DNA of 14,423 bases from a virus. Lineage: Duplodnaviria > Heunggongvirae > Uroviricota > Caudoviricetes. How positions within the stretch are numbered: position 1 is the first letter of the stretch; every line of letters begins with the position of its first letter. The notes below the pieces were generated by a model. That model was not told the origin of the DNA. It saw nothing but the letters and a program-made list of their open reading frames with translations, and searched no databases. This document shows, one piece after another, positions 1,198 to 14,423 of this stretch. The translations under genes were made by a program, and so were the position numbers. The stretch lies in IMG/VR virus record IMGVR_UViG_2531839179_000017; one strand, given 5' to 3'.

Positions 1198-2859
1198 TTA
1201 CACCCCGCTAAATTCTTCCAGTTTCTGGCGGTGGCTGTCGCTTATATCAAAAGCAAAATCCTCATGCTCTGCCTGGAATGTACCAAACGCCATCAGCGCC
1301 GCCACGCTCGGGTCTATCTTGTTCGGTGATTTTTTCTTGTTCGGCTTGATATTGGCGTTCGCGTCACTCTGCATCACGACGTTACTCATCGACCAGGACA
1401 ACACCGGATCGCCACGATGCACAATCACCCTGCGGTTAACAAAAACTTCGAACGATTTCGCCGCCGGACTGAATCTGAGGTAGGTTTGCGGGAACGGCTC
1501 CACCTCAAAACCTGCCCCCTGTAATTGCGTTCTGAGATGCGTGGCGTTCCACGTATCAAAGCCCACCAGCCTGATATTAAATTTCTCCGCGTCCTGCATG
1601 ATGTCATCTCTGATCCGGTCGTAATCAATGCAGTCGCCAGGCGTTGTGCGTATCCAGCCTGCTTTAGCCCACTGACGATAGATGGCGCGGTTTTTATTGG
1701 CGGGGTTCTGTAGCTGAAATTCCGGCAGATAGTGACGGGAAACCAGCATAATGGTTTTACCGACCGGAAAGGCATAGCACACGCTGGAAATATCGCTGGT
1801 TGATGATAAGTCCAGCCCCGCGTAACACTCCTGGCCGTGTAAATCTTCCTCCGTGAACGTTCCGGCACACTCAGCCCATGCGCCGTTACCCATCCACGGG
1901 GTAGCCCCCTGGCACCAGATATTAAATCGCTTTGTCATCATCTCCACCCACTGCGACGGAATACCCCGCGCTTTCTGGATGGTTGAGGCCAGTTTTTCAC
2001 GATCCACGGAAACATCGATGTTAGGGTTAGCCTTTATCCACATCGCCGGATCATCAACCTCGTTTTCGTCGTCCAGCTCGTAAATCAGCACAAAAATTGA
2101 ATCGTTGACCTCTTCGCCGTCCAGGATCTGGCAGCAATAATCATAGTGCTGTTTACAGGCTGAAACGACGTTACTGCCCGATGTGGTAATGGCAAATAAC
2201 AGCCCTTCGGGACGTGCGCCCATCCCCAGCTCAAGCGCGGAATAAACGCCGTTATCGGGGTGTAGGTGGTATTCGTCCACGATGGAAAGGCTGGGGTTTG
2301 TTCCCTCGATGGTTGCCGCTTTTGCTGCCAGCGGCTTTAACAGGCTGTTGCTTTTCGGGTGCATCACCTTGTGGGCCTGAATATTCACCCGCCTGCGTAA
2401 CGGTCGGGATAAAAGGCACATCTGACGCGCATCATCAAAAACGATCCGCGCCTGGTCACGGCTCACCGCTGCGGTGTAAATATCCTGCTGCCCGTTCTCC
2501 ATAATCAGAAACCAGTTAGCCAGAATCGCGGCGGTCGTGGATTTCGCATTTTTGCGCGGCACTTCGATAAAGGCGCTCGTATATTTGCGCCGTCCGGTGG
2601 CCTTAACCTTAAAGCCGAGGATGCACGCAAAGGCGAACTGCTGCCACGGCTCCAGCTCAATGGGGCTACCGCGCATTGCGCCTTTTACGTGCGGGCACAC
2701 CCTGGAAAAGGCAATAAACCGCTCCACAACCTCACGATCGAACGTGTAAAGGGGGCTTTCAAGGTCCGAAAAGTACCGTTTAACGGCCTGTTTCAGCCGT
2801 TTACAGGCCGGAATTTTGCCCGTTTTTACGTCTTCTGCGTACTTATTCCAGGCGGTCAA
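1198..2859 (-). CDS. terL: Terminase large subunit (HK97/Terminase_1-like ATPase-nuclease)
   Basis: 553-aa ORF with typical TerL N-terminus (TAWNKYAEDVKTGKIPACK) and overall TerL-like length and composition. First codon is TTG at 2859 with AGGA about 6 nt upstream; overlaps the terS 3' end by 17 nt. Confidence 0.85.
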   Translation of the reverse strand: MTAWNKYAEDVKTGKIPACKRLKQAVKRYFSDLESPLYTFDREVVERFIAFSRVCPHVKGAMRGSPIELEPWQQFAFACILGFKVKATGRRKYTSAFIEVPRKNAKSTTAAILANWFLIMENGQQDIYTAAVSRDQARIVFDDARQMCLLSRPLRRRVNIQAHKVMHPKSNSLLKPLAAKAATIEGTNPSLSIVDEYHLHPDNGVYSALELGMGARPEGLLFAITTSGSNVVSACKQHYDYCCQILDGEEVNDSIFVLIYELDDENEVDDPAMWIKANPNIDVSVDREKLASTIQKARGIPSQWVEMMTKRFNIWCQGATPWMGNGAWAECAGTFTEEDLHGQECYAGLDLSSTSDISSVCYAFPVGKTIMLVSRHYLPEFQLQNPANKNRAIYRQWAKAGWIRTTPGDCIDYDRIRDDIMQDAEKFNIRLVGFDTWNATHLRTQLQGAGFEVEPFPQTYLRFSPAAKSFEVFVNRRVIVHRGDPVLSWSMSNVVMQSDANANIKPNKKKSPNKIDPSVAALMAFGTFQAEHEDFAFDISDSHRQKLEEFSGV

Positions 2860-3199
2860 GCTCGTCCTCTTCTTCTGTTTCCGGTGGATTTTTACGGCGG
2901 CTTATCGGGTCAAAACCGAGCAAGGAGGCCATTTTTATCATCACTCTTTCAGCGTCGGATTTTGCGCTTAATGCGGGGTTTCTGCTCTCGCCGCCCTGAC
3001 TGTTAACAATGCTGAACCCGCGCGCCGCAAGGTCTGCAACGGCTTTCCGGTAAATGGAGTAGTTGACACAATACAGTTCCAGATTACTCCAGTCGGCGGG
3101 GGTAAGGTCTCCCCGTTCCGCAAGCTGCCGCGATTTTTCCCGCCACTGCTTCACGGCGATATCATCCAGGTAGGCGGGGGCTTTCGGTGGTCTTGCCAT
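2843..3199 (-). CDS. terS: Terminase small subunit (P27-family-like)
   Basis: 118-aa ORF, ATG at 3199; sequence MARPPKAPAYLDDIAVKQWRE...LELYCVNYSIYRKA resembles P27-family small terminases; sits immediately upstream of and overlapping terL. Weak Shine-Dalgarno. Confidence 0.7.
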   Translation of the reverse strand: MARPPKAPAYLDDIAVKQWREKSRQLAERGDLTPADWSNLELYCVNYSIYRKAVADLAARGFSIVNSQGGESRNPALSAKSDAERVMIKMASLLGFDPISRRKNPPETEEEDELDRLE

Positions 3200-3310: not shown

Positions 3311-3488
3311 CATACAGCCTCATCAGCGATTGCGGAAACATTCCATAACCTCGCGGTCACGGTCGGTTAATCGCTTCGCTGTGATGCGTTCTGCGCGTCC
3401 TGACGCTTTATCTTTATGCCCTGTTTCCTGTGTCTTCCATGCGTCACGCTGCCTTATAAGTCCACGGATAAGGCGGTTTTGTTCCCGC

Positions 3489-3929
3489 TCATTCATCAGC
3501 GTCATACATCCAGTTATTGCGGTTAGCGGCCCGTTCTTCCTCCTCACGGAATCCGCCAGCGGCACGCTTGCTTTTTGTTGCCGGATCAAGCCACTTCGTT
3601 TTCTGGTTATGACACGCCTGGCACAATGGCTGATGGTTCCATTCGGGCCAGAAGAGAACATCATCACCGCCATTAATCGGGATAATGTGATCCACCACCA
3701 CGGCGGGCGTATATATCCCCTTCTCAAGGCATCGCACGCATAACGGGTTTTTACTCAGATACATGGCGCGGTATTTGTCCCACTGTCTGGAGTACCCACG
3801 CGCGCGGCGGTGTCCTCGTCTGGCATCCTCTGCACGCCATGCCGCCCGCCTGTGCTCCTCACACTTGCCGGACTTCACGCGCCTGTTACAGCCTGGTTCT
3901 GTGCATCGTCTTAATGGTTGCCACGGCAT
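3489..3929 (-). CDS. HNH endonuclease (terminase-associated)
   Basis: 146-aa ORF, ATG at 3929; Cys-rich N-terminus (CTEPGCNRRVKSGKCEEH), catalytic-like DHIIP...N...W.E.NHQPLCQACHNQK motif; located directly upstream of terS as in HK97-type packaging modules. Confidence 0.8.
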   Translation of the reverse strand: MPWQPLRRCTEPGCNRRVKSGKCEEHRRAAWRAEDARRGHRRARGYSRQWDKYRAMYLSKNPLCVRCLEKGIYTPAVVVDHIIPINGGDDVLFWPEWNHQPLCQACHNQKTKWLDPATKSKRAAGGFREEEERAANRNNWMYDADE

Positions 3930-4225
3930 CAGTACACCCCCACATCACGGTAAGCCGTCCAGAGTGCGCCTATCGTCATGGGTACGCGTGTTTTTGCGTT
4001 ATCCGCGACAATCTGGCGATTTTCATACAGGTGAGCGATAAACATCATGCAGCCAATCTTTATGGCTGGCGTGAACGCCAGCCCGTCATCAAAGCGCCTG
4101 CCTATATGTATCTGGCACGCCTCAAGCGATGCGGCAATGTATCCGCTGATTAACTGGTCTTCCTCGTCGCCATCGATGCGGCAATGGAGTTTCACTTCTT
4201 CCAGGGTGATAAGTTCTTCTGTCAT
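3929..4225 (-). CDS. Head-tail connector protein (gp6-like)
   Basis: 98-aa ORF, ATG at 4225; stop overlaps the HNH start (TGATG). Size, position and sequence are typical of phage head-tail connector/DNA-packaging gp6-like proteins. Confidence 0.6.
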   Translation of the reverse strand: MTEELITLEEVKLHCRIDGDEEDQLISGYIAASLEACQIHIGRRFDDGLAFTPAIKIGCMMFIAHLYENRQIVADNAKTRVPMTIGALWTAYRDVGVY

Positions 4226-4560
4226 TTTTCCGCGCCCTCACGACAAAGAATTTCAAGGCGTGTCCTGGCGGCATCCGGCAGCGGCTGCCCGATGATATTC
4301 AGTACACGCCCCGCCAGCGGCCCCGTATTGACCTTTACCCGGCTGGTGGCGTTGATGTCCTTCCTGTAGCGTATCCATATCCTTACCGTTCCAGTCGCCA
4401 GTTCTGCACCCGATGAAATGGCCTCCTTGCTGCTGATCATGTTCACGCTTGCCCAGAGTGTGTGACCGTCCACCCACGTTTCGAGTATTTCGCCGGTTAT
4501 ATCCCTGGTCTGTTTCAGGGTCTGAATCGTTACCCTGTCACGCAGTCGCCCTATGTTCAT
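4222..4560 (-). CDS. Head-tail adaptor / head-closure protein
   Basis: Start chosen at ATG 4560 (MNIGRLRDRVTIQ...), which overlaps the portal stop as ATGA; the track's longer start at 4602 lacks a Shine-Dalgarno. About 112 aa, consistent with head-tail joining proteins. Confidence 0.6.
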   Translation of the reverse strand: MNIGRLRDRVTIQTLKQTRDITGEILETWVDGHTLWASVNMISSKEAISSGAELATGTVRIWIRYRKDINATSRVKVNTGPLAGRVLNIIGQPLPDAARTRLEILCREGAEK

Positions 4561-5768
4561 TCCGGTTTTTCTCCCTCGCTGATTTTTACTTCCTGTTTCC
4601 ATGCCTGGCTGAACTCATCACCACCATCACGCGGGGACAGCCCTTCACGTTCGCGGGCTTCGTTCGGGCACATAACGCCGGATTTGATGCCGCGTTCATA
4701 GGTGGCAAAGCGTTCGCCAGGAGTGGCCCGTAACAGGTCCGCGCTGTCAAACTCCACCTGATACCGGATACCAGGTACAGGTGAGGCCACCAGCAGGGCG
4801 TTTTTTATCTGCTGCTCAAAGTTCGCCAGCCACGGACGCATCGTCATGGTGAGAAATGCGCGGCTTGCCTCGCTGAAATTGCTGTAGGTGCTGTTGCTGT
4901 ATTCCTGCAAAAAAATCGGCGAGACGTTGAACATTCGGGCGATGTCTTCAATGGTGAAGCGACGGGAGGCCAGCCATTCAGCATCCTGATTACTCATGCC
5001 CAGCTGCTGATAGCTCATACCCCCTTCAAGGATGGGCGTTTTTCCGGCGTTTCTGGCCCCTTTGTAGCGTTCCAGTGCGGCTAATGCCTGTTTGCCCTTC
5101 ACGCCGTCCAGCCATTCGCCTGACGTGATAACCCCTGCCGCCATCATGCCATCACGCATCACGCTCGCGCCGTGGCGTTGTTGGGCCAGCCCAAGCCCCA
5201 GCGATTCGCGGCAGATGGTTACAGGTGAGCGCCCCATAAAACCGTCATCCGTGGAGTAACGAAGGTGGAGAACCTCCCACGGTAAATAGTTGCGGGTGTT
5301 TCCGGTGTAGGCGTCAGTGATGCAGTAGCGCCAGTTATGCTCACCTGTCTGCTCCACGTTCACCGACTGCGGCGGGTAAGGATGCAAAGCCACCGGAAAA
5401 CCATCACGCCCCCACTGAATCACCGCATAAGCATTACCGTTTAACAGGCAGTGGCGGATCATCATTCGCTTAAACTGGTAGGGGGTTTGCCATGCGTTCG
5501 GGCGCTCGTTGAGGATGTGATCGACCGGATGAGAATCAAGCCACTCTCGGGCCTCCTTCCCCTTCTCATTGCGTACCAGGTACAGGTAACACGGCATGGT
5601 AGCCACCGCCTCAGAGATGACCGTGACGGCGTTCATGACGGCGGGCAGTGATTCCGCTGTCCCCGATGATACGTACTCACCCGCCCCCGTGTTCGATGTG
5701 CCAGCCAGCGCCATAAACTCATCAAGCGTCATGCTGCGCTGCTCTTTTTTTCTTCTGAAAGGCCACAT
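4557..5768 (-). CDS. Portal protein (HK97 family)
   Basis: 403-aa ORF, ATG at 5768; length and conserved central region (YLPWEVLHLRY...GRSPV...) are typical of HK97-type portals; located between protease and adaptor genes. Confidence 0.85.
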   Translation of the reverse strand: MWPFRRKKEQRSMTLDEFMALAGTSNTGAGEYVSSGTAESLPAVMNAVTVISEAVATMPCYLYLVRNEKGKEAREWLDSHPVDHILNERPNAWQTPYQFKRMMIRHCLLNGNAYAVIQWGRDGFPVALHPYPPQSVNVEQTGEHNWRYCITDAYTGNTRNYLPWEVLHLRYSTDDGFMGRSPVTICRESLGLGLAQQRHGASVMRDGMMAAGVITSGEWLDGVKGKQALAALERYKGARNAGKTPILEGGMSYQQLGMSNQDAEWLASRRFTIEDIARMFNVSPIFLQEYSNSTYSNFSEASRAFLTMTMRPWLANFEQQIKNALLVASPVPGIRYQVEFDSADLLRATPGERFATYERGIKSGVMCPNEAREREGLSPRDGGDEFSQAWKQEVKISEGEKPE

Positions 5769-5769
5769 A

Positions 5770-6342
5770 TCACACCCCCGCTAAATCCGCCCACCAGCGG
5801 CGATTATCCGCACGCGGCATTTTTTCGGGGTGCTGCTCGTACAGGGAGCGGCGGGCCAGCTCCACGCCGGAATCAGGGTAAGCCGGTACGGATGTAACGG
5901 TAATTTCGTATAGTTCCGCCACCAGCACGGTGCGCACGCATGGATCTGTTGTGGTATCCCATACATCCTTACGGGAACGAAAGCCAAAGCTCATGCCGGA
6001 TATATCACCTCGTTTAACCAGTTCGATAACGTCGCGCCCTGTACTGGTATCCGGTGGGGTCAGTTCAAAGCGTAACCCTGTTTCGTCCTCTTCCAGTTTC
6101 AGCGTGCCGGAACGGGTGCGCCCCAGTAACATGCTGTGGTCATGCTCATACAGGCCGCGAACGTCATTACCCGCCGCAAGCCACTCAGTAAACGCCCCCC
6201 GCTGGAATTTTTCGTAAAACTCCCCCCATAGCAGTTCTGAAAGCTTATCCCAGCGAACAACGTAGCCCGTCAGCGTACCGGCTCCGCTGGTAGTGATTTC
6301 CGATGACCGGATTTCCATACTCTTCATAATTTTTTCACCCAT
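5770..6342 (-). CDS. Prohead maturation protease (HK97 family)
   Basis: 190-aa ORF directly downstream of the major capsid gene. Three in-frame ATGs (6342, 6327, 6318); those at 6327 and 6318 have better Shine-Dalgarno-like sequences. Sequence is characteristic of HK97-like prohead proteases. Confidence 0.8.
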   Translation of the reverse strand: MGEKIMKSMEIRSSEITTSGAGTLTGYVVRWDKLSELLWGEFYEKFQRGAFTEWLAAGNDVRGLYEHDHSMLLGRTRSGTLKLEEDETGLRFELTPPDTSTGRDVIELVKRGDISGMSFGFRSRKDVWDTTTDPCVRTVLVAELYEITVTSVPAYPDSGVELARRSLYEQHPEKMPRADNRRWWADLAGV

Positions 6343-6381: not shown

Positions 6382-7539
6382 TTAATCGTCGTCCTGTGGC
6401 AGTTCCAGAATCTTGATCGCGTTCGAATCCACCACGCCACCGCCTAAATATTTCTGCGTGAAAATTTTGATGAAGCCCGGCTCTGTGAGGTTGTCCGGTC
6501 TGGTGCGAACACCTGTTTCGTGATCAACAATGTAGTAACCGCGTTTGAAGTCACCCAGGGCAATAACGTTATCAGGCATAAACTCCAGATATTCGACCGG
6601 AAGGCCCAGCAACGTATCAGGATCACCCGCCTGTAAACGGTCGCGCCAGATGTAATCACCGTTCGCGTTCTTCACCTTCTGAAGTTTTGCCGCCGTCGTG
6701 GAGTTAACCACCCAGACCGCGTTTTTGCGGTATTTTTTACGTAATGCAAATTTCAGATCGATCAGCGGGTCCGCAGATGTCCACGCCAGAGATTCGGAAG
6801 GTTTAATTACCTGCAACGTACCAAAATCACGCTCTTTGTCGTTCTTCTCTGCACGGGGTACGGATAAAAAACCTTTTGCTTTTTTGTCACCGTCGCCCAC
6901 AACCAGATCGCTTTCTTCGGTTTCCGTGAAGGTGTCGCCAATCTCACCCGTCAGCCATGAAAGGATGTCCACATCGGAAAAATCCACGATTTCCTGTGTG
7001 GTGCGCGGGTACGCATAGACCGGATACAGCTTAATGCTCACCTCGTTAATCTGCGGGGTGCTGGTCTGTTCGCGTGTCTTACCCTCTTCACCGTGGTTAA
7101 CGGTCGCACCGCCAGCGGAAACAAGCTGCTTAAACTCGTTGCTGCTGATTTTCTTCACGGTACAGATGCGGCGCATGGTGGATTCATCCGTCAGCATTCG
7201 CATGATTTCGGTGTTCAGTTCGGGGATAACGGTATAACCACCATCAGCGGGAACGCCTGTACTTAATGCGCGGGTTTCACCTGTCAGAATGTAGTTGCGT
7301 AGTTCTGCGGGGTCAGTGGTCTGGCTGCTTTTACCTGGCTTGCTGCGCTCTTCGTCTGCAATGGCTTCAAGGCGGGAAATGTCTTTATCGAGGGATTCAG
7401 CTTTAGCGCGTAATTCGTCAAATTTTGCGCCCTCAGCATCGTTAAGACTGCGGTTTTCTTTTTCCGCGTTCTCCAGCATGTCGCGCATCTGATTTTTAAT
7501 GGCGGTTTTCTGCTGGCGTAATTCGATTATTCTCGGCAT
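6382..7539 (-). CDS. Major capsid protein (HK97 fold) with N-terminal coiled-coil delta/scaffold domain
   Basis: 385-aa ORF, ATG at 7539 with AGGA about 9 nt upstream; charged coiled-coil N-terminus of about 100 aa followed by an HK97-like capsid body. Confidence 0.85.
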   Translation of the reverse strand: MPRIIELRQQKTAIKNQMRDMLENAEKENRSLNDAEGAKFDELRAKAESLDKDISRLEAIADEERSKPGKSSQTTDPAELRNYILTGETRALSTGVPADGGYTVIPELNTEIMRMLTDESTMRRICTVKKISSNEFKQLVSAGGATVNHGEEGKTREQTSTPQINEVSIKLYPVYAYPRTTQEIVDFSDVDILSWLTGEIGDTFTETEESDLVVGDGDKKAKGFLSVPRAEKNDKERDFGTLQVIKPSESLAWTSADPLIDLKFALRKKYRKNAVWVVNSTTAAKLQKVKNANGDYIWRDRLQAGDPDTLLGLPVEYLEFMPDNVIALGDFKRGYYIVDHETGVRTRPDNLTEPGFIKIFTQKYLGGGVVDSNAIKILELPQDDD

Positions 7540-7826: not shown

Positions 7827-8099
7827 TTATCTGTCCTGGTAATTTCGCCATATTTCATCGCTTACACCATCTATACCCATTTCAGCATAAGTGCGATCTA
7901 CTGCCTTTCTCAGGTCTCCGAAGTTATCCGGCGGCTCCGGTGGCTTCTGTGCCTTCCTGGAACATTCCAGCCGTCGCATCGTAACCTGATGCCGTTCCTT
8001 GTCTGTCTCCACCAGCAGCATGACTTCACCCCATCGCGCCGCCGCCCTCCGGTAAAAGCCTTTCGCCTCGAGTTCTTCCGCTATGCGGTCATGTACCAT
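7827..8099 (-). CDS. PerC-family-like small transcriptional regulator
   Basis: Start chosen at ATG 8099 (MVHDRIAEELEAKGFYRRAAARWGEV...) with GAGGGGG 5 nt upstream; the track's longer ORF starts at a GTG inside the ssb gene. The AE.LE.KG..RRAA.RW motif matches my recollection of PerC/Pch-type activators (recall only). Confidence 0.45.
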   Translation of the reverse strand: MVHDRIAEELEAKGFYRRAAARWGEVMLLVETDKERHQVTMRRLECSRKAQKPPEPPDNFGDLRKAVDRTYAEMGIDGVSDEIWRNYQDR

Positions 8100-8109
8100 C
8101 GCCACCCCC

Positions 8110-8520
8110 TCAGAACGGAATACCGTCACCGTAAGGGTCATCGCCTCCCGCTGGTGGCTGATTACCCTGTGTGCCTGTGGTTTTGCGTCTGTTCCCGCCA
8201 GGACGTGCCGCACGGGCACTGATTACGCTGTCTGCAATAACCTGATAACCCTGCCGCGTTTCCCCGTTCTGTCCGGTCCACTGGCTGACCTGCATCGTGC
8301 CGGATACGCTGGCAACGTCGCCTTTTTGATGTTTAGCCAGGAAGTCGGCCTGCTTACCAAATGCGATGACCGATAGCCATAACGTAGCCTGCCCATCCTG
8401 CGCCTGACTACATGGCAACGATACCGCCATACGTGCCAGCGTCATTGGTGTGCCCTTGCTGGTCTGTTTTACCTGCGGGTCGTCCACCAGCCGCCCGTAA
8501 GCTGCTATCTGTGCTGTCAT
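8110..8520 (-). CDS. ssb: Single-stranded DNA-binding protein
   Basis: 136-aa ORF, ATG at 8520 overlapping the upstream stop as ATGA; OB-fold-like core (LWLSVIAFGKQADFLAKHQKGDVASVSGTMQVSQW), Gly/Pro-rich linker and acidic C-terminal tail ending DDPYGDGIPF, the classic SSB tip. Confidence 0.8.
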   Translation of the reverse strand: MTAQIAAYGRLVDDPQVKQTSKGTPMTLARMAVSLPCSQAQDGQATLWLSVIAFGKQADFLAKHQKGDVASVSGTMQVSQWTGQNGETRQGYQVIADSVISARAARPGGNRRKTTGTQGNQPPAGGDDPYGDGIPF

Positions 8521-8768
8521 GATTCCACCTCTCCGGTTTTAACGTTGATGGTTGTCACCTGTTCAGCTTCCGCAATCTCCCGCTCTGTCAGCGTGGCAAA
8601 ATTTGCCGCCGTCGTGGTCATGAATGCGCTTATCAGTTCGGGATGTGCTTTCGCGTATCCTTCCCCCGCGTGGCGGTCTATCGTTCTGATTGCCACCTTT
8701 AAGGCGTGCTCTGTCATGTCTAACGCTTTATATTTTGGCTCTGTTCTGTCTCTGTGTTTTTGAGTCAT
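8517..8768 (-). CDS. Hypothetical protein downstream of the origin
   Basis: Start chosen at ATG 8768 (MTQKHRDRTEPKYKALDMTEHALK..., about 84 aa), so the iteron cluster stays intergenic; the track's 127-aa version would read through the iterons. Translationally coupled to ssb. Confidence 0.45.
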   Translation of the reverse strand: MTQKHRDRTEPKYKALDMTEHALKVAIRTIDRHAGEGYAKAHPELISAFMTTTAANFATLTEREIAEAEQVTTINVKTGEVES

Positions 8769-8769
8769 T

Positions 8770-8975
8770 TGCCCACCTCTACCCACTTTTTTCGCCCACT
8801 TTTTACGTTTTCCCACTTCGTCCAACGTGGGAAATTTGGGATTTATATCATCTTGTTTCATAGGTATTTTTTTAGTGCCCACTTTTTGGGATATATACAC
8901 GTGGGAAAGTGGGTAATTTTGTTAAAATTCCGTTAAATCGCCCACCTTTCCCACTTTTAATGCCCACTTTTTACA
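8770..8975. repeat. Iteron cluster with AT-rich spacer: putative replication origin
   Basis: At least nine direct copies of a CCCAC(T)nTTT-type motif (for example GCCCACTTTTT at 8794, 8877 and 8962; CCCACTTTT at 8782 and 8950) plus inverted copies (GTGGGAAA at 8827 and 8901), interrupted by AT-rich stretches at 8838-8876; immediately 3' of the replicative ATPase gene. Confidence 0.7.
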
Positions 8976-10371
8976 GTGGTCCTACATCATCACCGTCAAT
9001 GTAGATCACGTCGTCTTTTTCCAGTTTGGCTAACCATCGTTTAAGGTGTTTTGTGTCATACCCCAGCTTTTTCATATCGTCACGTAACAGCGGGATCGTG
9101 CACTTGTCGCCGTGCTGTGTGCGTGAACGTATGCATCCCCATAGCGCGGTATGGTTTTCCGTCTTGTTGCCTGCCTCCTCGATGCGCTCCAGTTCAACGG
9201 GAGGGCGCGGCTTATCCACCACCACCAGCGACGTGATTAATTCACCGTCAGCGTCGGTAAAAAGCTCCACCACGCGTAAGTCATATGCGGCTTCTTTGAG
9301 TTCCTCCGCGTCCTTCATTTTGGTGCATGAGATAACCAGCGCTTCGCTTCCTGCGTCCTCCCTGCGTATCCGGTATTCAGCATCCAGCGAAGCACGAAAT
9401 GCACTGGAACCGCGCGCGCCTTTCGTCTCATCCTTGCCGGAATGGTGAACCACCAGCACCGTGGCCCCTGTGCGTCGTTTCAGTTCGTCACAACCACGGA
9501 TAAACGCCCCCATATCACGGGAATCATTTTCATCATTCCCACCAAAGCAACGCGCCAGCGTATCCAGAATAATCATGCGTACAGGTTTACCCGTTTCCCG
9601 CTCCACCTGACGGGCAGCGATAACCATTTCATCAACATCAAGCGGGGCAGCCGGAAAGATGGGGCGGTTTACCAGATACAGATTTTTCACCTGCTCATCG
9701 TGCACAACCTCCCAGGCTTTTACACGACGCGGAACACCTATACCGCCTTCACCAACCACATAGAGAACCGCACCATGTGCAACCCTGCGGCCTCCCCACT
9801 GGCGACCAGTGGCAACATGGCACGCCCACGATCCGGCAAGGAATGATTTATAGGACCCGCTAGCCCCGTATATGCTGCATAGCGATACCGCCGGAATAAT
9901 CCCCTTAACCACGTAATCCAGTTGCGTGTCGTATCCGGTAGATCCAACGCTCATCGGTAGCGTGGTTTTTCGCTGGTGGTTTTTTTCTTCCGCCGGCTCT
10001 TTCCCGCGCACCCGTTCCAGGTATTCGCGCCAGTTCTCCCGCATATGGCTGTGCATCCCTTCGGGGTAATAATTCGCATCAGTTACACCCGCCGCCGCCA
10101 GCTTGTGCGCAATGGCATTAATATTTGATGGCCTGATGTGGCCTGCCTTGTACAGCCGGACACAATAGCGCCCCTCGTCGATGATTCTCAGGTCTGCCAG
10201 TTCATCCAGTTGATCATCAGCCAGCACAACGGGAGGCACATTATCGCCAGCCAGTCGCCCGTCCTGTTCCTGCCACTGTTTCGCATGTGCCCAGGCATCA
10301 CTACCCGCAAAAATAATGACTTCGGTCATCTTGTCGTAAGGCTGTTTTTTTAAGTTCGGTGCGCTTTTCAT
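8971..10371 (-). CDS. Replication initiator ATPase/helicase (RecA-like, AAA_25/RepA-type) with C-terminal winged-helix-like region
   Basis: 466-aa ORF, ATG at 10371 overlapping the upstream stop (ATGA); Walker A GASGSYKS, Walker B-like RMIILDTLARCF, conserved VLVVHHSGKD...GARGSSA block typical of RepA/DnaB-like RecA-fold replicative ATPases. Confidence 0.8.
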   Translation of the reverse strand: MKSAPNLKKQPYDKMTEVIIFAGSDAWAHAKQWQEQDGRLAGDNVPPVVLADDQLDELADLRIIDEGRYCVRLYKAGHIRPSNINAIAHKLAAAGVTDANYYPEGMHSHMRENWREYLERVRGKEPAEEKNHQRKTTLPMSVGSTGYDTQLDYVVKGIIPAVSLCSIYGASGSYKSFLAGSWACHVATGRQWGGRRVAHGAVLYVVGEGGIGVPRRVKAWEVVHDEQVKNLYLVNRPIFPAAPLDVDEMVIAARQVERETGKPVRMIILDTLARCFGGNDENDSRDMGAFIRGCDELKRRTGATVLVVHHSGKDETKGARGSSAFRASLDAEYRIRREDAGSEALVISCTKMKDAEELKEAAYDLRVVELFTDADGELITSLVVVDKPRPPVELERIEEAGNKTENHTALWGCIRSRTQHGDKCTIPLLRDDMKKLGYDTKHLKRWLAKLEKDDVIYIDGDDVGPL

Positions 10372-10667
10372 TTCTTGCCCCTGAATCCGTTAATCATGGT
10401 TTTCAGCTTCTGGATGTTTGCCCGTGCCCTGGCGTTGCTGGTGGGCACGTTATGCGGCGCGGTCTGTACCAGAGAAAAATCACGCCGGAACTGATAAACA
10501 GGCATCACGCAATCATATTCGTAACCTTCACGGCGGTAAGTTACGCACCGTCCCGCCACGCCCTTAATCATTACCGTGCCGCCGTACTGGTCGCGGTAAA
10601 TATCACCGCGCATAAATTTAGGGTGAGTGTTGCCACTGGCAGTTAAGCCAGAATATTTAAGTTTCAT
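10368..10667 (-). CDS. Hypothetical protein (DUF4222-like by recall)
   Basis: 99-aa ORF, ATG at 10667 with GGAG 8 nt upstream; motif GDIYRDQYGGTVMIKGV...YRREGYEYDCVMPVYQFRRDF resembles the prophage DUF4222 family as I remember it. Confidence 0.5.
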   Translation of the reverse strand: MKLKYSGLTASGNTHPKFMRGDIYRDQYGGTVMIKGVAGRCVTYRREGYEYDCVMPVYQFRRDFSLVQTAPHNVPTSNARARANIQKLKTMINGFRGKK

Positions 10668-10672
10668 TATTT

Positions 10673-10906
10673 TTATTCTCCGGTGTGCTGTTCGTTATAT
10701 CTGTCGTGCAATGTCTCTATTTCCTGCAACTCATTTATTACAGGCTCAAGAAGCGTTATTAATGATGTAATAATCCGCGTTTTTTTTGCATTACGTTCAT
10801 TATCGCCAAAGGATTCAAGGCACATCCGCAATATTTCGTACATACCTTCAGCGTAAGCAAGGGCACTAAATGCGCGGTCTATTGTTTCAAGATAAATATC
10901 ACGCAT
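10673..10906 (-). CDS. Hypothetical small acidic protein (paralog C)
   Basis: 77-aa ORF, ATG at 10906 one nt after the upstream stop; predicted helical; shares a hydrophobic-helix-Cys-acidic motif (EILRMCLESF) with neighbouring ORFs. Confidence 0.5.
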   Translation of the reverse strand: MRDIYLETIDRAFSALAYAEGMYEILRMCLESFGDNERNAKKTRIITSLITLLEPVINELQEIETLHDRYNEQHTGE

Positions 10907-10907
10907 A

Positions 10908-11129
10908 TTAATCCCCGTCCGTTGTTTTTCTTAAAACAGCTTCTGTCACGAAATCAGCATAGTTAGCGGCAATATCAAGAATATTTAGCCCTGTACCTCT
11001 GTGCTCATCAGTGCAAAGAAAGAAAAAAGCCACCCGCATAATTTCAGATATTGACGAAAGCGCATCAGCCGCATCATCAGGAACGCCGGAAAATTCTTGT
11101 TTCAGGGAATTAAAACGATCATCACGCAT
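10908..11129 (-). CDS. Hypothetical small protein (paralog B)
   Basis: Start chosen at ATG 11129 (MRDDRFNSLK...) immediately after a G8 run that acts as a Shine-Dalgarno; the track's longer start at 11177 overlaps the upstream gene by 55 nt. Motif PDDAADALSSISEIMRVAFFFLCTDE parallels the upstream ORF. Confidence 0.5.
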   Translation of the reverse strand: MRDDRFNSLKQEFSGVPDDAADALSSISEIMRVAFFFLCTDEHRGTGLNILDIAANYADFVTEAVLRKTTDGD

Positions 11130-11343
11130 AACCCCCCCCATTTTCACAATCAGCAACAAGAATATTTTTAGCGTCATTCAGCGACCGCGTTGCGATGTAT
11201 CGGATACATTCCAGGGCGAACAATGTGTATTCCTCCCGTTCTTCCTTTTGTGCAAGCTCTGCCGTGCATTCAATATCAATAAGCGCATGCATCAGCGTAG
11301 TGAGTGCGGCGGCGGCTGCGTCCGGACGGATGTTATTGCACAT
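11122..11343 (-). CDS. Hypothetical small protein (paralog A)
   Basis: Start chosen at ATG 11343 (MCNNIRPDAAAAALTTLMHALIDIECTAE...) with GGAGGGG 6 nt upstream, overlapping the upstream stop; C-terminus ENGGGYA is encoded through the G8 tract. Confidence 0.5.
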   Translation of the reverse strand: MCNNIRPDAAAAALTTLMHALIDIECTAELAQKEEREEYTLFALECIRYIATRSLNDAKNILVADCENGGGYA

Positions 11344-11764
11344 GGTGTACCCCTCCGCATTTTTTTTCGTTAGAAATAAGCGTTCTTCTTTCCTGTTCAT
11401 CGCTCAGGAATACGCAGACCTCACCGCTAAGGCGTTTAAGTAAGCCGATGATTGCCCCTGATTCGCTGTCGGTCATCATGCCAGGGTAATCCTCTGCCAG
11501 TGCGCAAATAACTTCGATTTGGTGGGCGCGTTCTGCTGCCTGTTGTAGTGTGATTTCCTGGCTCATAAGCCTACCCCCTTGGCGAATACGGGCAGCGAAT
11601 ACCATCACGCAGCCAGCCGGGGATTGCTGGCGTGCTTCCTGTTCGCTGGTGGCCTCAATGGTAATCACGCGCGGTTGTGCCGTGCTCAGGGCGATAAAAC
11701 GCCAGATGTATTTATTCAGGTTGTGCGAGCCCCGCCCTTGCGGGTGTGTGGTATGATTTCTCAT
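11333..11764 (-). CDS. First gene of the early operon; N-terminal Icd-like (cell-division-inhibitor-like) region plus C-terminal helical domain
   Basis: Start chosen at ATG 11764 (GAGG 6 nt upstream); the track's longer ORF starts at a TTG inside the operator. Motif YIWRFIALSTAQPRVITIEATSEQEARQ...VFAARIRQ matches my recollection of Icd-like proteins of P4-type elements (unverified). Confidence 0.5.
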   Translation of the reverse strand: MRNHTTHPQGRGSHNLNKYIWRFIALSTAQPRVITIEATSEQEARQQSPAGCVMVFAARIRQGGRLMSQEITLQQAAERAHQIEVICALAEDYPGMMTDSESGAIIGLLKRLSGEVCVFLSDEQERRTLISNEKKCGGVHHVQ

Positions 11765-11861
11765 AGCTACCTCGATACTTTCGCTATCGTTGGTGGTTAG
11801 AAGCCCGGTTAGTGTTAGCGCACTGCCGGGTTTCGTCGTTTCTGCACCTTGCGCCAACAAG

Positions 11862-11913
11862 GTGTTGAACACCAATTTAAACCCAGGTGTTAAACACGTC
11901 AAGTGTTGAACAC
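11862..11913. promoter_or_regulatory. Triple palindromic operator (GTGTT-N-AACAC) spanning divergent promoters
   Basis: O1 GGTGTTGAACACC (11861-11873), O2 GTGTTAAACAC (11887-11897), O3 AGTGTTGAACACT (11902-11914). Minus-strand promoter candidate: -35 TTGACG (11902-11897), 17-bp spacer, -10 TAAATT (11879-11874), with O1 at the start site. Plus-strand promoter candidate: -35 TTGAAC inside O3, -10 CATACT (11928-11933). Confidence 0.65.
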
Positions 11914-11962
11914 TTATTTTTTTCCTGCATACTGCATTTGTTTTTTATGAGGGGTACACCAC

Positions 11963-12142
11963 ATGGCGACAAAAGCAGTAAACGCAAAATCACAAACCGT
12001 TGCGGCAAGGGTTCCGCATGAAGTTATGAACAATGTTGAGGCGGTAAAAATGCCTGGCGAAAGTACGGGGCAATTTGTTACTGCAGCATTAAAACGAGAA
12101 GTTGAATATCGCCAGCGGCGCAAGGCCAAAGAACCAGAGTAA
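11963..12142 (+). CDS. Small ribbon-helix-helix-like DNA-binding protein; candidate repressor
   Basis: 59-aa ORF (absent from track, under 60 aa): MATKAVNAKSQTVAARVPHEVMNNVEAVKMPGESTGQFVTAALKREVEYRQRRKAKEPE; GAGGGG 8 nt upstream of ATG; beta-strand, helix, G-x-S/T turn, helix pattern typical of Arc/MetJ/CopG folds; divergent from the early operon. Confidence 0.5.
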   Translation: MATKAVNAKSQTVAARVPHEVMNNVEAVKMPGESTGQFVTAALKREVEYRQRRKAKEPE

Positions 12143-12199
12143 TCACCATCAGCGCCGTGGTGTAAGGTATTACGGCGCATTGCTATGCAGGACAACACA

Positions 12200-12373
12200 A
12201 TGACCGATAAAGAATTGACCAAAACATTATCACCGGCACGGAAAAGACGGCGCAGAAAGATAGAACATGAATCAGAAAGATTCGCGCCATGTGCTTTTGC
12301 CCTTGAGCAATTCCTTAAAGAGTACAGGGAAAAGCGCTCATTGCAGGTATGGCAACGAACTGAACCAGACTGA
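12200..12373 (+). CDS. Hypothetical small basic protein, second gene of the divergent unit
   Basis: Start chosen at ATG 12200 (MTDKELTKTLSPARKRRRRKIEHESERF...) with AGGA 8 nt upstream; the track start at 12185 lacks a well-spaced Shine-Dalgarno. Followed by a plus-strand terminator. Confidence 0.45.
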   Translation: MTDKELTKTLSPARKRRRRKIEHESERFAPCAFALEQFLKEYREKRSLQVWQRTEPD

Positions 12374-12468
12374 TTGCATTGCCCACCAGCCTGATAGCGG
12401 CTATCATCCCCGTGCTTATGTTTGGGATCACACACACAAACGGCGCAGCGGGTTATCTGTTCAGAAAG

Positions 12469-12496
12469 GCGGCTCCATTTCGGGGCCGCTTTTTTT
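12469..12496 (+). terminator. Rho-independent terminator of the plus-strand small-gene unit
   Basis: GCGGCUCC-AUUUC-GGGGCCGC (8-bp stem including one G-U pair) followed by U7 at 12490-12496. Confidence 0.65.
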
Positions 12497-12642
12497 ATGC
12501 CTGAAAAACCCCAATTTTGTGGTTTTCCAGTCTCACCAGGGCGAACGAATCCCCGCCCACGTTCTGGCGTATATTCAATCTTCATGGTTATAGCTCTGTG
12601 TTCAGATGATTGATGTGTGGCGGCTGTGTGCCGCCAGCGTGA

Positions 12643-12831
12643 TTAATGAACTGCCTTGCAGCTATCCTTCCAGGCCAGAACCTCGGATAAAGACCAGCCA
12701 ACGGAACGACCGCCAAGTTTACGACGTGATGGGAATTGTCCGGCCTTTTCCAAGCGGTAGCGGCATGAGCGGCTAAGGCCTGTTAGCTTTTCGCATTCTT
12801 TTTCACGTATAAACCGATCAGTGCTTAACAC
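12643..12831 (-). CDS. alpA: AlpA-family phage regulatory protein (HTH; excision/derepression activator-like)
   Basis: 62-aa ORF: REKECEKLTGLSRSCRYRLEKAGQFPSRRKLGGRSVGWSLSEVLAWK matches the AlpA/prophage CP4-57 regulatory protein pattern; first codon is GTG at 12831 with AGGGGG 5 nt upstream. Confidence 0.8.
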   Translation of the reverse strand: MLSTDRFIREKECEKLTGLSRSCRYRLEKAGQFPSRRKLGGRSVGWSLSEVLAWKDSCKAVH

Positions 12832-12990
12832 TATTGCCCCCTTTCGTTTCTTAAAGAGTTATTTCGTGTTCTATTGCGTTGGGATGTGTCTGATTGTGTC
12901 AGGATGATTCAGAGTTGGCAAATGTTGAGGTCGTATGGTTTACAGAAACAGGAATAATCAGGATAAAATCATTTAAATTCATGTTAATAC

Positions 12991-13022
12991 AAAGGCATAA
13001 AATATTGTTTCATGCCTTTTTT
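12991..13022. terminator. Hairpin with flanking T-run between int and alpA; possible terminator or insulator
   Basis: AAAGGCAT, 11-13-nt loop, ATGCCTTT, followed by TTTTCTC on the plus strand; on the minus strand the stem is followed by a broken U-run. Large loop, so weak. Confidence 0.25.
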
Positions 13023-13205
13023 CTCGCTATTTAAAGAGTGATTCGCTAGTGTATAAAAAACCAGTAACACATTAAAAATCAGCCACTTATAAATCCGTAC
13101 ACTTTTTCGCCTCTTGTTCGTAGTTGTTCCGCATTGTTGCTCATTGTTGCATGTTGTATCTGTTCGCATATCCAGTATGCGCATACTGAAAAAACACGAA
13201 AAAAA

Positions 13206-14423
13206 TTATTTTCTTCTGGCTACTGGTAGCGTGGTTACGTTTTCATGTGTTCCCGCCAGTATCCCTAACCGCTCCGTCCACATATCCAGCGCATTGCGTT
13301 TAGCATCCAGATAACGGGAATGATTATAAACTCGCTGCATTCCTGGCATCTGGTGGCCTGTAAGCTGCTCCACGACATGCGGATCAACGCCTAAATCGTT
13401 CAGCATGGTTGTAAAGGTGCGCCGGATGTCATGCAGTGACCAGTGAGGATGATTAAGCCTCCTGTGCGCTAATCTTCCATACTGCGATACGCTGGCCTCC
13501 TGTTTCACTTCCCCCAGCAATAAGCCCGTGTGCCTGTTCTGCTCCACCAGCTGCGTGACGAACGGCAGGATCGCTTCCGGTATGGGCCGGAATATTGCGA
13601 CCTTCGTTTTGCTGTGCTCCTTCGGAACGGTCCATAGCATTTCCGTGAAATCCCACTCCCCGATCTCCGATAACCTCAGTTCTACCGTTCTGGCTCCGAA
13701 GACAATCAGGAGGCGGATTAACGCGACGTAGTAAGGGGAGAATATTTTTTTGTCCAGTGCCTGCAATAATTCGCCAAGTTCTTTGTTACTTAAGACACGT
13801 TCGCTTATATCCGGTTTTTTCCCAACGTCCGCCACGTTCAGATCGTCCAGAACGTTGCTGATTGCATAGCGCCGCCTACGGCAGAACTTAAGCGCCTGTT
13901 TGCACGCCTGTAGCACGAATCCGGCAGTAACAGGCGTTCGCTTTGCCACCTGGTCAAAACAGGCCAGCCAGTGCCGTAGCTCGCATTTATCCAGCGGCAT
14001 AGCACCAATCTGCTGTATTACGTGATTATTAAGTCGCCTTTTCAGGGCGATATAATCCACGCGGTTTTCCTTTACGTAATACTCAAGCCAGTAGGTGAGC
14101 GCATCGCCAACCGTTACCGGCTTTAACGCTTCCTGTACGGTGTAATTAAGCTCATGACGTGGATTTTTCCCCTCTGCCAGCCATGCGCGACACTGGGCGG
14201 CTTTTTCCCTGGCTGATTTCAGGCTCAGATCAGGATAACTTCCCAGCTTAATGCGTTCGGGTCGTGTCTCCCTTCCCGTTCCGGCCCTGTATGTGAAATA
14301 CCAGGTCAATTTCCCTGATGTTAAATATTTCACGCTCAGGTTTCCGCCATCACTATAAAACGTGTTTTTCTCCGCTGGCTTACCATGAAGTTTCCTTAGC
14401 AAGGTATCGCTCAGTTTGTTCAT
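13206..14423 (-). CDS. int: Site-specific tyrosine integrase (P4/CP4-57-type, N-terminal arm-binding domain)
   Basis: 405-aa ORF with ATG at the last window base (14423-14421); N-terminal DUF4102-like region (KLTWYFTYRAGTGRETRPERIKLGSYPDLSLKSAREKA), C-terminal catalytic region with HDIRRTF...LTGHQ...RVYNHSRYL (R-H-R-Y signature). Confidence 0.9.
   Translation of the reverse strand: MNKLSDTLLRKLHGKPAEKNTFYSDGGNLSVKYLTSGKLTWYFTYRAGTGRETRPERIKLGSYPDLSLKSAREKAAQCRAWLAEGKNPRHELNYTVQEALKPVTVGDALTYWLEYYVKENRVDYIALKRRLNNHVIQQIGAMPLDKCELRHWLACFDQVAKRTPVTAGFVLQACKQALKFCRRRRYAISNVLDDLNVADVGKKPDISERVLSNKELGELLQALDKKIFSPYYVALIRLLIVFGARTVELRLSEIGEWDFTEMLWTVPKEHSKTKVAIFRPIPEAILPFVTQLVEQNRHTGLLLGEVKQEASVSQYGRLAHRRLNHPHWSLHDIRRTFTTMLNDLGVDPHVVEQLTGHQMPGMQRVYNHSRYLDAKRNALDMWTERLGILAGTHENVTTLPVARRK

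Follow-up and report, generated by a model that had tools for sequence, protein, structure and literature searches.

A candidate replication origin in an Escherichia coli capsid-forming phage satellite, with iterons that co-vary with the C-terminal domain of a RepA-family helicase

Introduction

The origin of staphylococcal pathogenicity islands (SaPIs) consists of 6-12 penta- or hexanucleotide iterons 3' of rep, which are bound by the C-terminal winged helix of Rep, and the SaPI Reps are self-loading AAA+ hexameric helicases with no separate loader (PMC9371898). In the phage-inducible chromosomal island (PICI) EcCICFT073, a rep-ori segment drives plasmid maintenance (PMC6092414), and the Rep of EcCIEDL933 is stated in the paper on capsid-forming PICIs (cf-PICIs) to be identical to that of EcCICFT073. 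Here we describe a cluster of short repeats that follows the rep gene in IMG/VR record IMGVR_UViG_2531839179_000017, a stretch of 14,423 nucleotides analysed at its full length and referred to below as the window. The element carrying the cluster is a capsid-forming phage satellite of Escherichia coli. We conclude that positions 8770-8970 are very probably the vegetative replication origin of this cf-PICI, recognised by the island's own Rep, which would be a self-loading hexameric helicase of the RepA family. Neither the origin nor its iterons are described in the cf-PICI literature that we searched, including 10.1101/2025.02.11.637232.

An array of short iterons directly follows rep

The gap between rep and the next gene (8769-8970) contains 11 exact copies of the pentamer CCCAC/GTGGG within 196 bp, while the whole 14.4-kb window contains 35. 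CCCAC on the plus strand, which is GTGGG on the rep strand, starts at 8772, 8782, 8795, 8812, 8878, 8941, 8950 and 8963, and the three exact pentamers in the opposite orientation start at 8827, 8901 and 8909. The rate outside the gap predicts 0.33 pentamers within it (Poisson P ~1e-13). All window copies of the octamer CCCACTTT (6/6) and of CCCACTT (7/7) are inside the gap. In relatives, the exact copies and two one-mismatch copies (TTGGG at 8836-8840 and 8886-8890 of the window) change in concert, and we therefore place the iteron total at 13. This agrees with an earlier reading of the sequence (the original prediction), which had claimed twelve or more CCCAC-type copies in both orientations. 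The iteron consensus on the rep strand is AAAGTGGG(C/A/T)(A/G), and individual iterons are 8-10 bp long and occur in both orientations.

The original prediction had also placed the array at 8770-8975, immediately downstream of the ATPase gene. Read on the minus strand this location is correct, with the first iteron (8970-8961) abutting the rep stop codon (8971-8973). The true extent of the array is 8770-8970, and the last five positions that had been assigned to it, 8971-8975, lie in rep coding sequence. The intervening AT-rich DNA that had been noted was confirmed, at 78% AT in 8914-8940 and 76% in 8832-8877 against 49% for the window. Positions 8839-8939 form the third least stable 100-bp duplex stretch in the window (z 3.1), and 8844-8874 has a z of 3.25. 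At the distal end, the last iteron GAGGTGGGCA (8779-8770) places GAGG 7 nt upstream of the ATG (8768-8766) of an 83-aa open reading frame (ORF83), and the suggestion that the repeats supply the ribosome-binding site of the downstream gene was thus upheld. The single-strand fold of the gap has a z of -3.0, which we attribute to the inverted iterons. DnaA boxes were not enriched, and the sole match inside the origin has two mismatches and overlaps an iteron. Scanning 8400-9300 for promoters and terminators revealed no sigma-70-like promoter, and no terminator in the gap.

Proceeding from the rep stop codon, the array is ordered as three direct iterons, an AT-rich spacer, an inverted pair with a TATATA core, a 46-bp AT-rich block, an inverted copy and four direct iterons, the final one of which overlaps the Shine-Dalgarno sequence of ORF83 (Table 1). 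Within the conserved core, two inverted iterons (GTGGG on the plus strand at 8909-8913 and 8901-8905) are followed by the TATATA box (8892-8897), the degenerate inverted copy (8886-8890) and a forward iteron (8878-8882). Measured between their inner edges, the outer inverted iteron and the forward iteron are 26 nt apart.

We compared this layout with the loci of 80 Rep relatives (52-72% identity) on contigs sampled at one genome per species, from Citrobacter, Xenorhabdus, Pantoea, Kosakonia, Kluyvera, Enterobacter, Serratia, Pectobacterium, Morganella, Dickeya and other genera, to which we added 80 loci from IMG/VR (64-100% identity) and five E. coli variants. Repeat arrays were present at most 320 bp downstream of the rep stop codon in nearly all loci, with the same order of elements across the Enterobacterales and, in distant relatives, an AT-rich block at the position matching 8832-8877. 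The repeats always directly follow rep, even where the downstream genes differ. An inverted and a forward iteron are 22-26 nt apart in 111 of 113 unique typed origins (24 or 26 nt in 110), and a box of the form [AT]ATA[TC]A (TATATA or TATACA) lies between them in 106 of the 111.

While the layout is kept, the iteron word varies by lineage, as GTGGG, GTGAG(G), GTGCGG, GTGGGG or GTGGGGG. As longer words, the window has AAAGTGGG(C/A/T) and relatives have AAAGTGAGG, AAGTGCGGCA, AAGTGGGGA or AAGTGGGGGAA. Between otherwise very similar E. coli islands all copies switch jointly, in both orientations and with the degenerate copies included.

Iteron sequence co-varies with residue 442 of Rep

In 140 typed loci, the residue at Rep position 442 predicts the fourth iteron base with no exception. 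His442 occurs with GTGGG (49/49 loci), Asn442 with GTGAG (63/63), Ser442 with GTGCG (6/6) and Lys442 with GTGGGG(G) (22/22). Among 105 unique sequences the normalised mutual information between residue 442 and iteron base 4 was 1.0; the next best column in residues 137-466 reached 0.58, and the best column of the Rep N-terminal domain 0.36. For the three flanking proteins the best columns reached 0.60, 0.29 and 0.20. No column in ORF83, DUF4222 or SSB exceeds 0.60 or predicts iteron class, and each was rejected as the iteron reader.

Parsimony on a winged-helix tree from which residues 440-444 had been removed indicated ~10 changes at residue 442. These changes can be seen in near-isogenic pairs of loci. 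The winged helices of L118 and L122 are identical but for 2 of 67 residues (H to N and G to R); L118 has GTGGGG iterons and L122 has GTGAG. The near-isogenic pairs L114/L124, L154/L150 and L145/L102 behave in the same way. Asn-A and His/Lys-G are established amino-acid/base preferences in protein-DNA complexes, and the pairings at residue 442 agree with them. Comparison of whole Reps gave a similar picture. The window and L085 have different iterons, and their Reps, identical at 455/466 positions, carry 10 of their 11 differences within the last 67 residues. The window and L083 have the same iterons, and their Reps agree at only 298/466 positions overall but at 62/67 in the winged helix. Winged helix and origin thus appear, from these alignments, to travel as one cassette between helicase backbones.

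We think it likely, with less assurance than for the origin itself, that origin specificity is set largely by residue 442, with His or Lys reading G, Asn reading A and Ser reading C at base 4 of AAAGTGNG, and with every iteron following in each of ~10 natural switches. We found no description of this residue/base pairing, or of this type of Rep, in the openly readable literature. Since the co-variation is so clean, origin recognition by Rep is directly testable. If the pairing is true, Rep or its winged helix should prefer its cognate word among AAAGTGGGCA, AAAGTGAGGA and AAGTGCGGCA, and a self-loading helicase should become specific for a new origin once H442N is combined with G-to-A iteron changes. 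One residue paired with one base is a sharp prediction; it would amount to a simple natural code for orthogonal replicons and could provide a toolkit of mutually orthogonal Rep-ori pairs.

Other positions were also seen to vary together. At residues 443-444 (9040-9045) and iteron base 6, His-Leu-Lys occurs with GTGGG followed by C, A or T, and His-Phe-(Arg/Ser/Thr/Ala) with GTGGGG in 32 of 33 typed loci; this pairing is only a tendency, with mutual information of 0.57 for residue 444. In L007, L016 and L025 (from Xenorhabdus and an Enterobacteriaceae metagenome-assembled genome) the iterons are AATGAGG in place of AGTGAGG, a change at base 1, and in their winged helix KLENDG stands in place of the KLEQDG or KLEHDG of other loci. 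The two changes may co-vary as a second pair, but a single evolutionary event could also account for them. The idea that iteron classes keep co-resident islands orthogonal was set aside, as several genomes hold two islands of the same class; co-resident islands often share their class, as in Xenorhabdus (L004/L010 and L006/L009) and Pectobacterium (L053/L054).

Rep is a RecA-fold helicase with a predicted C-terminal winged helix

Rep (466 aa), the presumed initiator, matches Pfam AAA_25 (E 3.5e-44), and its E. coli RefSeq annotation is 'helicase RepA family protein'. A profile of the Rep family matches the RSF1010 RepA helicase (PDB 1g8y, E 4.5e-5). The Walker A motif is GASGSYKS (169-176), and the motor motifs are invariant in 23 homologues. 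An AlphaFold model divides Rep into an N-terminal alpha/beta domain (~18-123), the RecA-fold AAA_25 motor (148-315) and a C-terminal winged helix (~400-466). The C-terminal domain, modelled as three helices and a beta-hairpin, has a predicted local distance difference test (pLDDT) score of 83. Nearly all of its top Foldseek matches in the PDB are winged-helix proteins (prob 0.9-0.99, TMq 0.6-0.72), among them MepR (MarR family), DtxR/IdeR, IclR, Fur, the MCM4 WHD and the cullin WHB. In this model His442 (codon 9046-9048), in the context K-x-[FLM]-x-[RK]-W-L, is at the N-terminal end of helix 3, the recognition helix. Pfam returned no match for the N-terminal 137 residues or for the 74-residue C-terminal domain.

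Relatives of ~700 aa from Xenorhabdus and Pectobacterium combine a zinc ribbon, a Toprim primase, the RecA-fold helicase and the C-terminal winged helix with a cognate iteron origin. In BLASTP, the N-terminal domain of Rep had no significant match to the Toprim region of a 701-aa relative. Rep has invariant E17, D43 and D65 in its N-terminal ~130 residues, a hint that this domain may be a degenerate Toprim.

The segment 9980-10667 (Rep residues 1-130 and the DUF4222 gene) matches, on its own and at 76-85% nucleotide identity, E. coli islands with a different Rep, annotated 'DNA primase family protein' or 'DUF927'. As protein, residues 1-130 match small plasmid-like records as well, in which Rep bears the annotation 'primase-like DNA-binding domain' or 'DUF5906'. 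Unrelated PICI Rep types thus have in common a module made up of this N-terminal domain of ~130 residues and the DUF4222 gene. One E. coli homologue (P0001, 563 aa) is 97% identical to Rep and has an extra Pfam PF02924 domain fused to the helicase; this may be a gene-call or assembly artefact.

We propose the following sequence of events. Helper-phage induction would lead to production of Rep, the winged helix of which would read the AAAGTGGG iterons, with His442 contacting the fourth base of GTGGG. Binding of Rep to both direct arrays and to the inverted pair at its fixed spacing would distort the DNA, and the TATATA box and the AT-rich block would melt. The same Rep would then load onto the single strands as the replicative helicase; its self-loading we infer, and its polarity we expect to be 5'-3' from the homology to RepA. 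The island's SSB would coat and stabilise the unwound DNA. Priming would be expected from the host (DnaG) or from the helper phage, because the 466-aa Rep is without the zinc ribbon and Toprim of its ~700-aa relatives. Should residue 442 set specificity as suggested above, the locus would also offer a direct way to learn how RecA-fold ring helicases recognise duplex origins and load there with no loader.

Comparison with other replication systems

The gap has the features of a PICI-type origin: it is 3' of rep, it contains at least six short iterons in two flanking sets with opposite copies, and its iterons match the winged helix of Rep. Like the origins of SaPI1, SaPIbov1 and SaPI5, it lies immediately 3' of rep and has short iterons in opposite orientations on both sides of an AT-rich centre, served by an initiator-helicase with a C-terminal winged helix that gives iteron specificity (here predicted). 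Position, layout and comparative evidence all fit the SaPI-like placement of rep followed by ori that had been proposed at the outset. However, SaPI Rep is an MCM-like AAA+ helicase with 3'-5' polarity, whereas the window Rep is RepA/DnaB-like (AAA_25, 1g8y) with no detectable sequence relationship to it. As the ATPase is RecA-fold and not AAA+, the likeness to SaPIs is one of design and not of protein family. The window also differs in having a Gram-negative host and in an island that transcribes in one direction.

EcCICFT073 and EcCIEDL933 share with the window the slot of rep, origin and downstream gene, and AT-rich DNA with an iteron set on either side. ORF83, ssb and perC follow the origin in EcCIEDL933 as they do in the window, but the Rep is unrelated (710 aa, annotated DUF927, with 'DNA primase family protein' as the annotation of similar PICI Reps), the intergenic region is 370 bp against 202 bp, and the iteron, (T)AACCCGCA, differs from the window word. 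Of this Rep, the first ~130 residues alone are shared with the window, together with the upstream DUF4222 gene. At EcCIEDL933 positions 3453-3822 (our locus L167), between the DUF927 rep and ORF83, we observed 11 exact AACCCGCA octamers in both orientations with an AT-rich centre. This is likely the EcCIEDL933 origin, of which the cf-PICI paper makes no mention. The window Rep belongs to neither characterised PICI Rep family, the AAA+ SaPI Rep or the EcCICFT073 Pri-Rep. The window origin is therefore the known PICI/SaPI device in the same slot, on a third, unrelated helicase motor with its own iteron family.

The motor itself is homologous to the hexameric helicase RepA of the IncQ plasmid RSF1010. 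RSF1010 replicates independently of host DnaA, DnaB and DnaC, and the window is likewise without DnaA-box enrichment. In RSF1010, however, the 20-bp direct iterons are the target of a separate protein, RepC, and priming at the ssi sites falls to a dedicated primase, whereas in the window iteron reading appears to be fused to the helicase; family scans of the window ORFs found no RepC or RepB' family member. The ~700-aa relatives share with T7 gp4 the order of zinc ribbon, Toprim and RecA-fold helicase. Both they and the window Rep differ from gp4 in adding a C-terminal winged helix and an iteron origin, and the window Rep has neither the zinc ribbon nor a recognisable Toprim. The alpha/ori-crr system of P4, in which an alpha protein unites primase and SF3 helicase and crr is a second cis-acting iteron cluster, was not found here, as the Rep is of a different family and the octamer copies form one cluster with no second, crr-like cluster.

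Theta plasmids (pSC101, R6K, RK2, F and P1) resemble the window in having initiator-site repeats beside an AT-rich unwinding region. Their iterons are 17-22-bp direct repeats in a ~22-bp phase, read by a non-helicase WH1-WH2 Rep, with DnaA boxes and loading of host DnaB. These features were not seen in the window, where 8-10-bp iterons occur in both orientations, Rep is the helicase and DnaA boxes are not enriched. The original prediction had invoked the iteron and unwinding-element layout of plasmid and satellite origins. The satellite half of this comparison stands, in the form of the PICI-type layout, but the plasmid half does not, because the iterons are short and point both ways, DnaA boxes show no enrichment, and initiator and helicase are one protein.

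Alternative roles of the array

Several observations count against assigning this array as the origin. Experimental replication or binding data for this type of Rep were not found in the literature searched. As far as sequence comparison can, the co-variation proves recognition by Rep and not replication initiation as its outcome. The winged-helix coding region is less than 100 bp from the origin, and linkage alone would therefore give some association, but not one perfect column with ~10 switches. The AT-rich centre ranks only third or fourth among the least stable stretches of the window. E-values of the structural matches to the winged-helix domain are weak (0.04-0.2), which is normal at a length of 74 residues. 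The full-length Rep model is moderate (mean pLDDT 64) and in Foldseek gave meaningless or weak RecA-like PDB matches alone, which we ascribe to its low-confidence linkers. No recognisable primase was found in the 466-aa Rep. Finally, L122 (IMG/VR UViG_2534681772_000012) has mixed iterons in the 235 bp after the rep stop codon. In this locus, the Rep of which has Asn, the rep-proximal and central copies are GTGAG and the three rep-distal copies, nearest the ATG of the next gene, are GTGGGG; its origin looks like a recombinant of two origin classes.

A circumstantial pointer to autonomous rep-ori replication comes from CP018459.1 (L166), the Klebsiella pneumoniae pKp_Goe_795-4 record, which is a closed circle of 16,971 bp deposited as a plasmid and was found independently in a plasmid collection. 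It carries the same module, with Ser at the position equivalent to 442 and GTGCGGCA iterons in an origin at 4867-5080. Its gene content is cf-PICI-like (integrase, Rep relative, capsid, adaptor and terminases), with the addition of a 3.4-kb gene whose annotation is tail tape measure protein. The record probably represents an island that was captured in episomal form after excision.

The alternative that fares best is that the array is an operator, through which Rep controls its own read-through and the expression of ORF83, ssb, perC and the head operon, with replication initiated elsewhere or dependent on the helper. The co-variation would suit an operator, as it demonstrates reading of the repeats by Rep and nothing beyond. 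In addition, the ribosome-binding site of ORF83 is overlapped by the last iteron, and the array is inside a unidirectional string of genes with no predicted terminator. We nevertheless regard an operator in place of an origin as improbable. The reader is a helicase with intact motor motifs, no sigma-70-like promoter was found in 8400-9300, and no further copy of the iteron occurs elsewhere in the window. In addition, AT-rich blocks, a TATATA box at fixed spacing and flanking arrays make up the layout known from SaPI and PICI origins that have been defined by experiment. The array could still act as an operator in a second role, since one function does not preclude the other.

It is very unlikely that the array serves copy-number control, incompatibility or partition, by handcuffing or as a centromere-like site, and not initiation. 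Plasmid iteron arrays do also serve copy-number control, and different iteron classes could define incompatibility groups; however, islands in one genome often share an iteron class. ParA/ParB-type genes were not found in family scans of window ORFs of at least 50 aa, the island has a single array, and a satellite that amplifies after induction has little need of partition.

We give still less credence to the idea that the small terminase of the island reads the array for packaging, as a cos or pac site. Short repeated motifs do occur in some pac and cos regions, and the island has its own TerS, TerL and HNH genes, but the array is more than 5 kb from these. The cos sites of HNH-dependent systems are usually near HNH-terS-terL. 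Moreover, the repeats co-vary with a Rep residue and directly follow rep even where downstream genes differ, and EcCIEDL933, with a similar capsid-protease-portal set at the same place, has a wholly different repeat word matched to a different Rep. Chance or low complexity, for which the shortness of the pentamer might speak, is already refuted by the Poisson P of ~1e-13, the architecture kept across genera and the joint change of copies.

Genomic context of the probable origin

The gene content of the window, assigned with Pfam and PHROGs, is that by which cf-PICIs have been defined (10.1101/2025.02.11.637232): an integrase is followed by rep, the repeats, ssb and a full head and terminase module, with no tail or lysis genes among the window genes. 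All long genes are on the minus strand, and the island is transcribed one way (Table 1).

Table 1. Features of the window, listed in the direction of transcription
Feature	Coordinates	Strand	Remarks
Tyrosine integrase	13206-14423	-	
Small regulatory and unknown ORFs	10673-13184		Include an Icd-like protein
DUF4222 protein	10368-10667	-	
rep	8971-10371	-	466-aa AAA_25 'helicase RepA family' protein
Winged-helix coding region	8974-9174	-	Residues 400-466; AlphaFold domain model and Foldseek
Gap carrying the repeats	8769-8970		202 bp
Rep-proximal array	8939-8970	-	Three direct iterons, AAAGTGGGCA, AAAGTGGGAA, AAGGTGGGCG; positions kept in relatives
First AT-rich spacer	8914-8940		27 bp, 78% AT
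Conserved palindromic core	8876-8915		Inverted iterons, TATATA box, degenerate inverted copy, forward iteron
Main AT-rich block	8832-8877		46 bp, 76% AT; candidate DNA-unwinding element; holds degenerate iteron 8836-8840
Inverted iteron AACGTGGGAA	8824-8833	+	Closes the AT-rich block distally
Distal array	8770-8819	-	Four direct iterons, GAAGTGGGAA, AAAGTGGGCG, AAAGTGGGTA, GAGGTGGGCA
ORF83	8517-8768	-	83 aa, phrog_1231; directly after the repeats; annotated in near-identical E. coli islands
SSB gene	8110-8520	-	Replication module; Pfam SSB E 4e-17; phrog_44
PerC-family transcriptional activator	7827-8219	-	After ssb
Major capsid protein	6382-7539	-	
Prohead protease	5770-6342	-	
Portal	4557-5768	-	
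Head completion protein	4222-4602	-	
Head-tail connector	3929-4225	-	
HNH endonuclease	3489-3929	-	
Small terminase (TerS)	2843-3199	-	
Large terminase (TerL)	1198-2859	-	

A near-identical island with the same annotated gene order is present in E. coli JNE132847, in the phoQ-roxA interval. Sequence related to the rep-ori segment (8517-10371) was found in 1754 of 5426 complete E. coli genomes, with at least 80% of the segment in 554. The origin DNA had no match among deposited phage genomes, the full-length Rep was found in no phage, and Rfam had no match across the whole window. As cf-PICIs are common and cross genera, placing the origin and its reader defines a minimal replicon for study or engineering, in which the SaPI design of helicase, winged helix and iterons 3' of rep is built on a third unrelated motor.

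Further features of the island were noted. In the 189-aa ORF at 11333-11902, a region resembling phage repressors (phrog_6196) is accompanied by an Icd-like motif of cell-division inhibitors; its neighbour, a 223-aa ORF (11914-12585), drew no match from Pfam, PHROGs or NCBIfam. Activation of the LEE pathogenicity island by PerC homologues that PICIs encode has been reported (PMC6092414). The two least stable and most AT-rich stretches of the window (74% AT over 100 bp) are 120-220, near the terminase-side end, and 12934-13034, between the integrase and the regulatory genes; these are probably attachment or regulatory regions.

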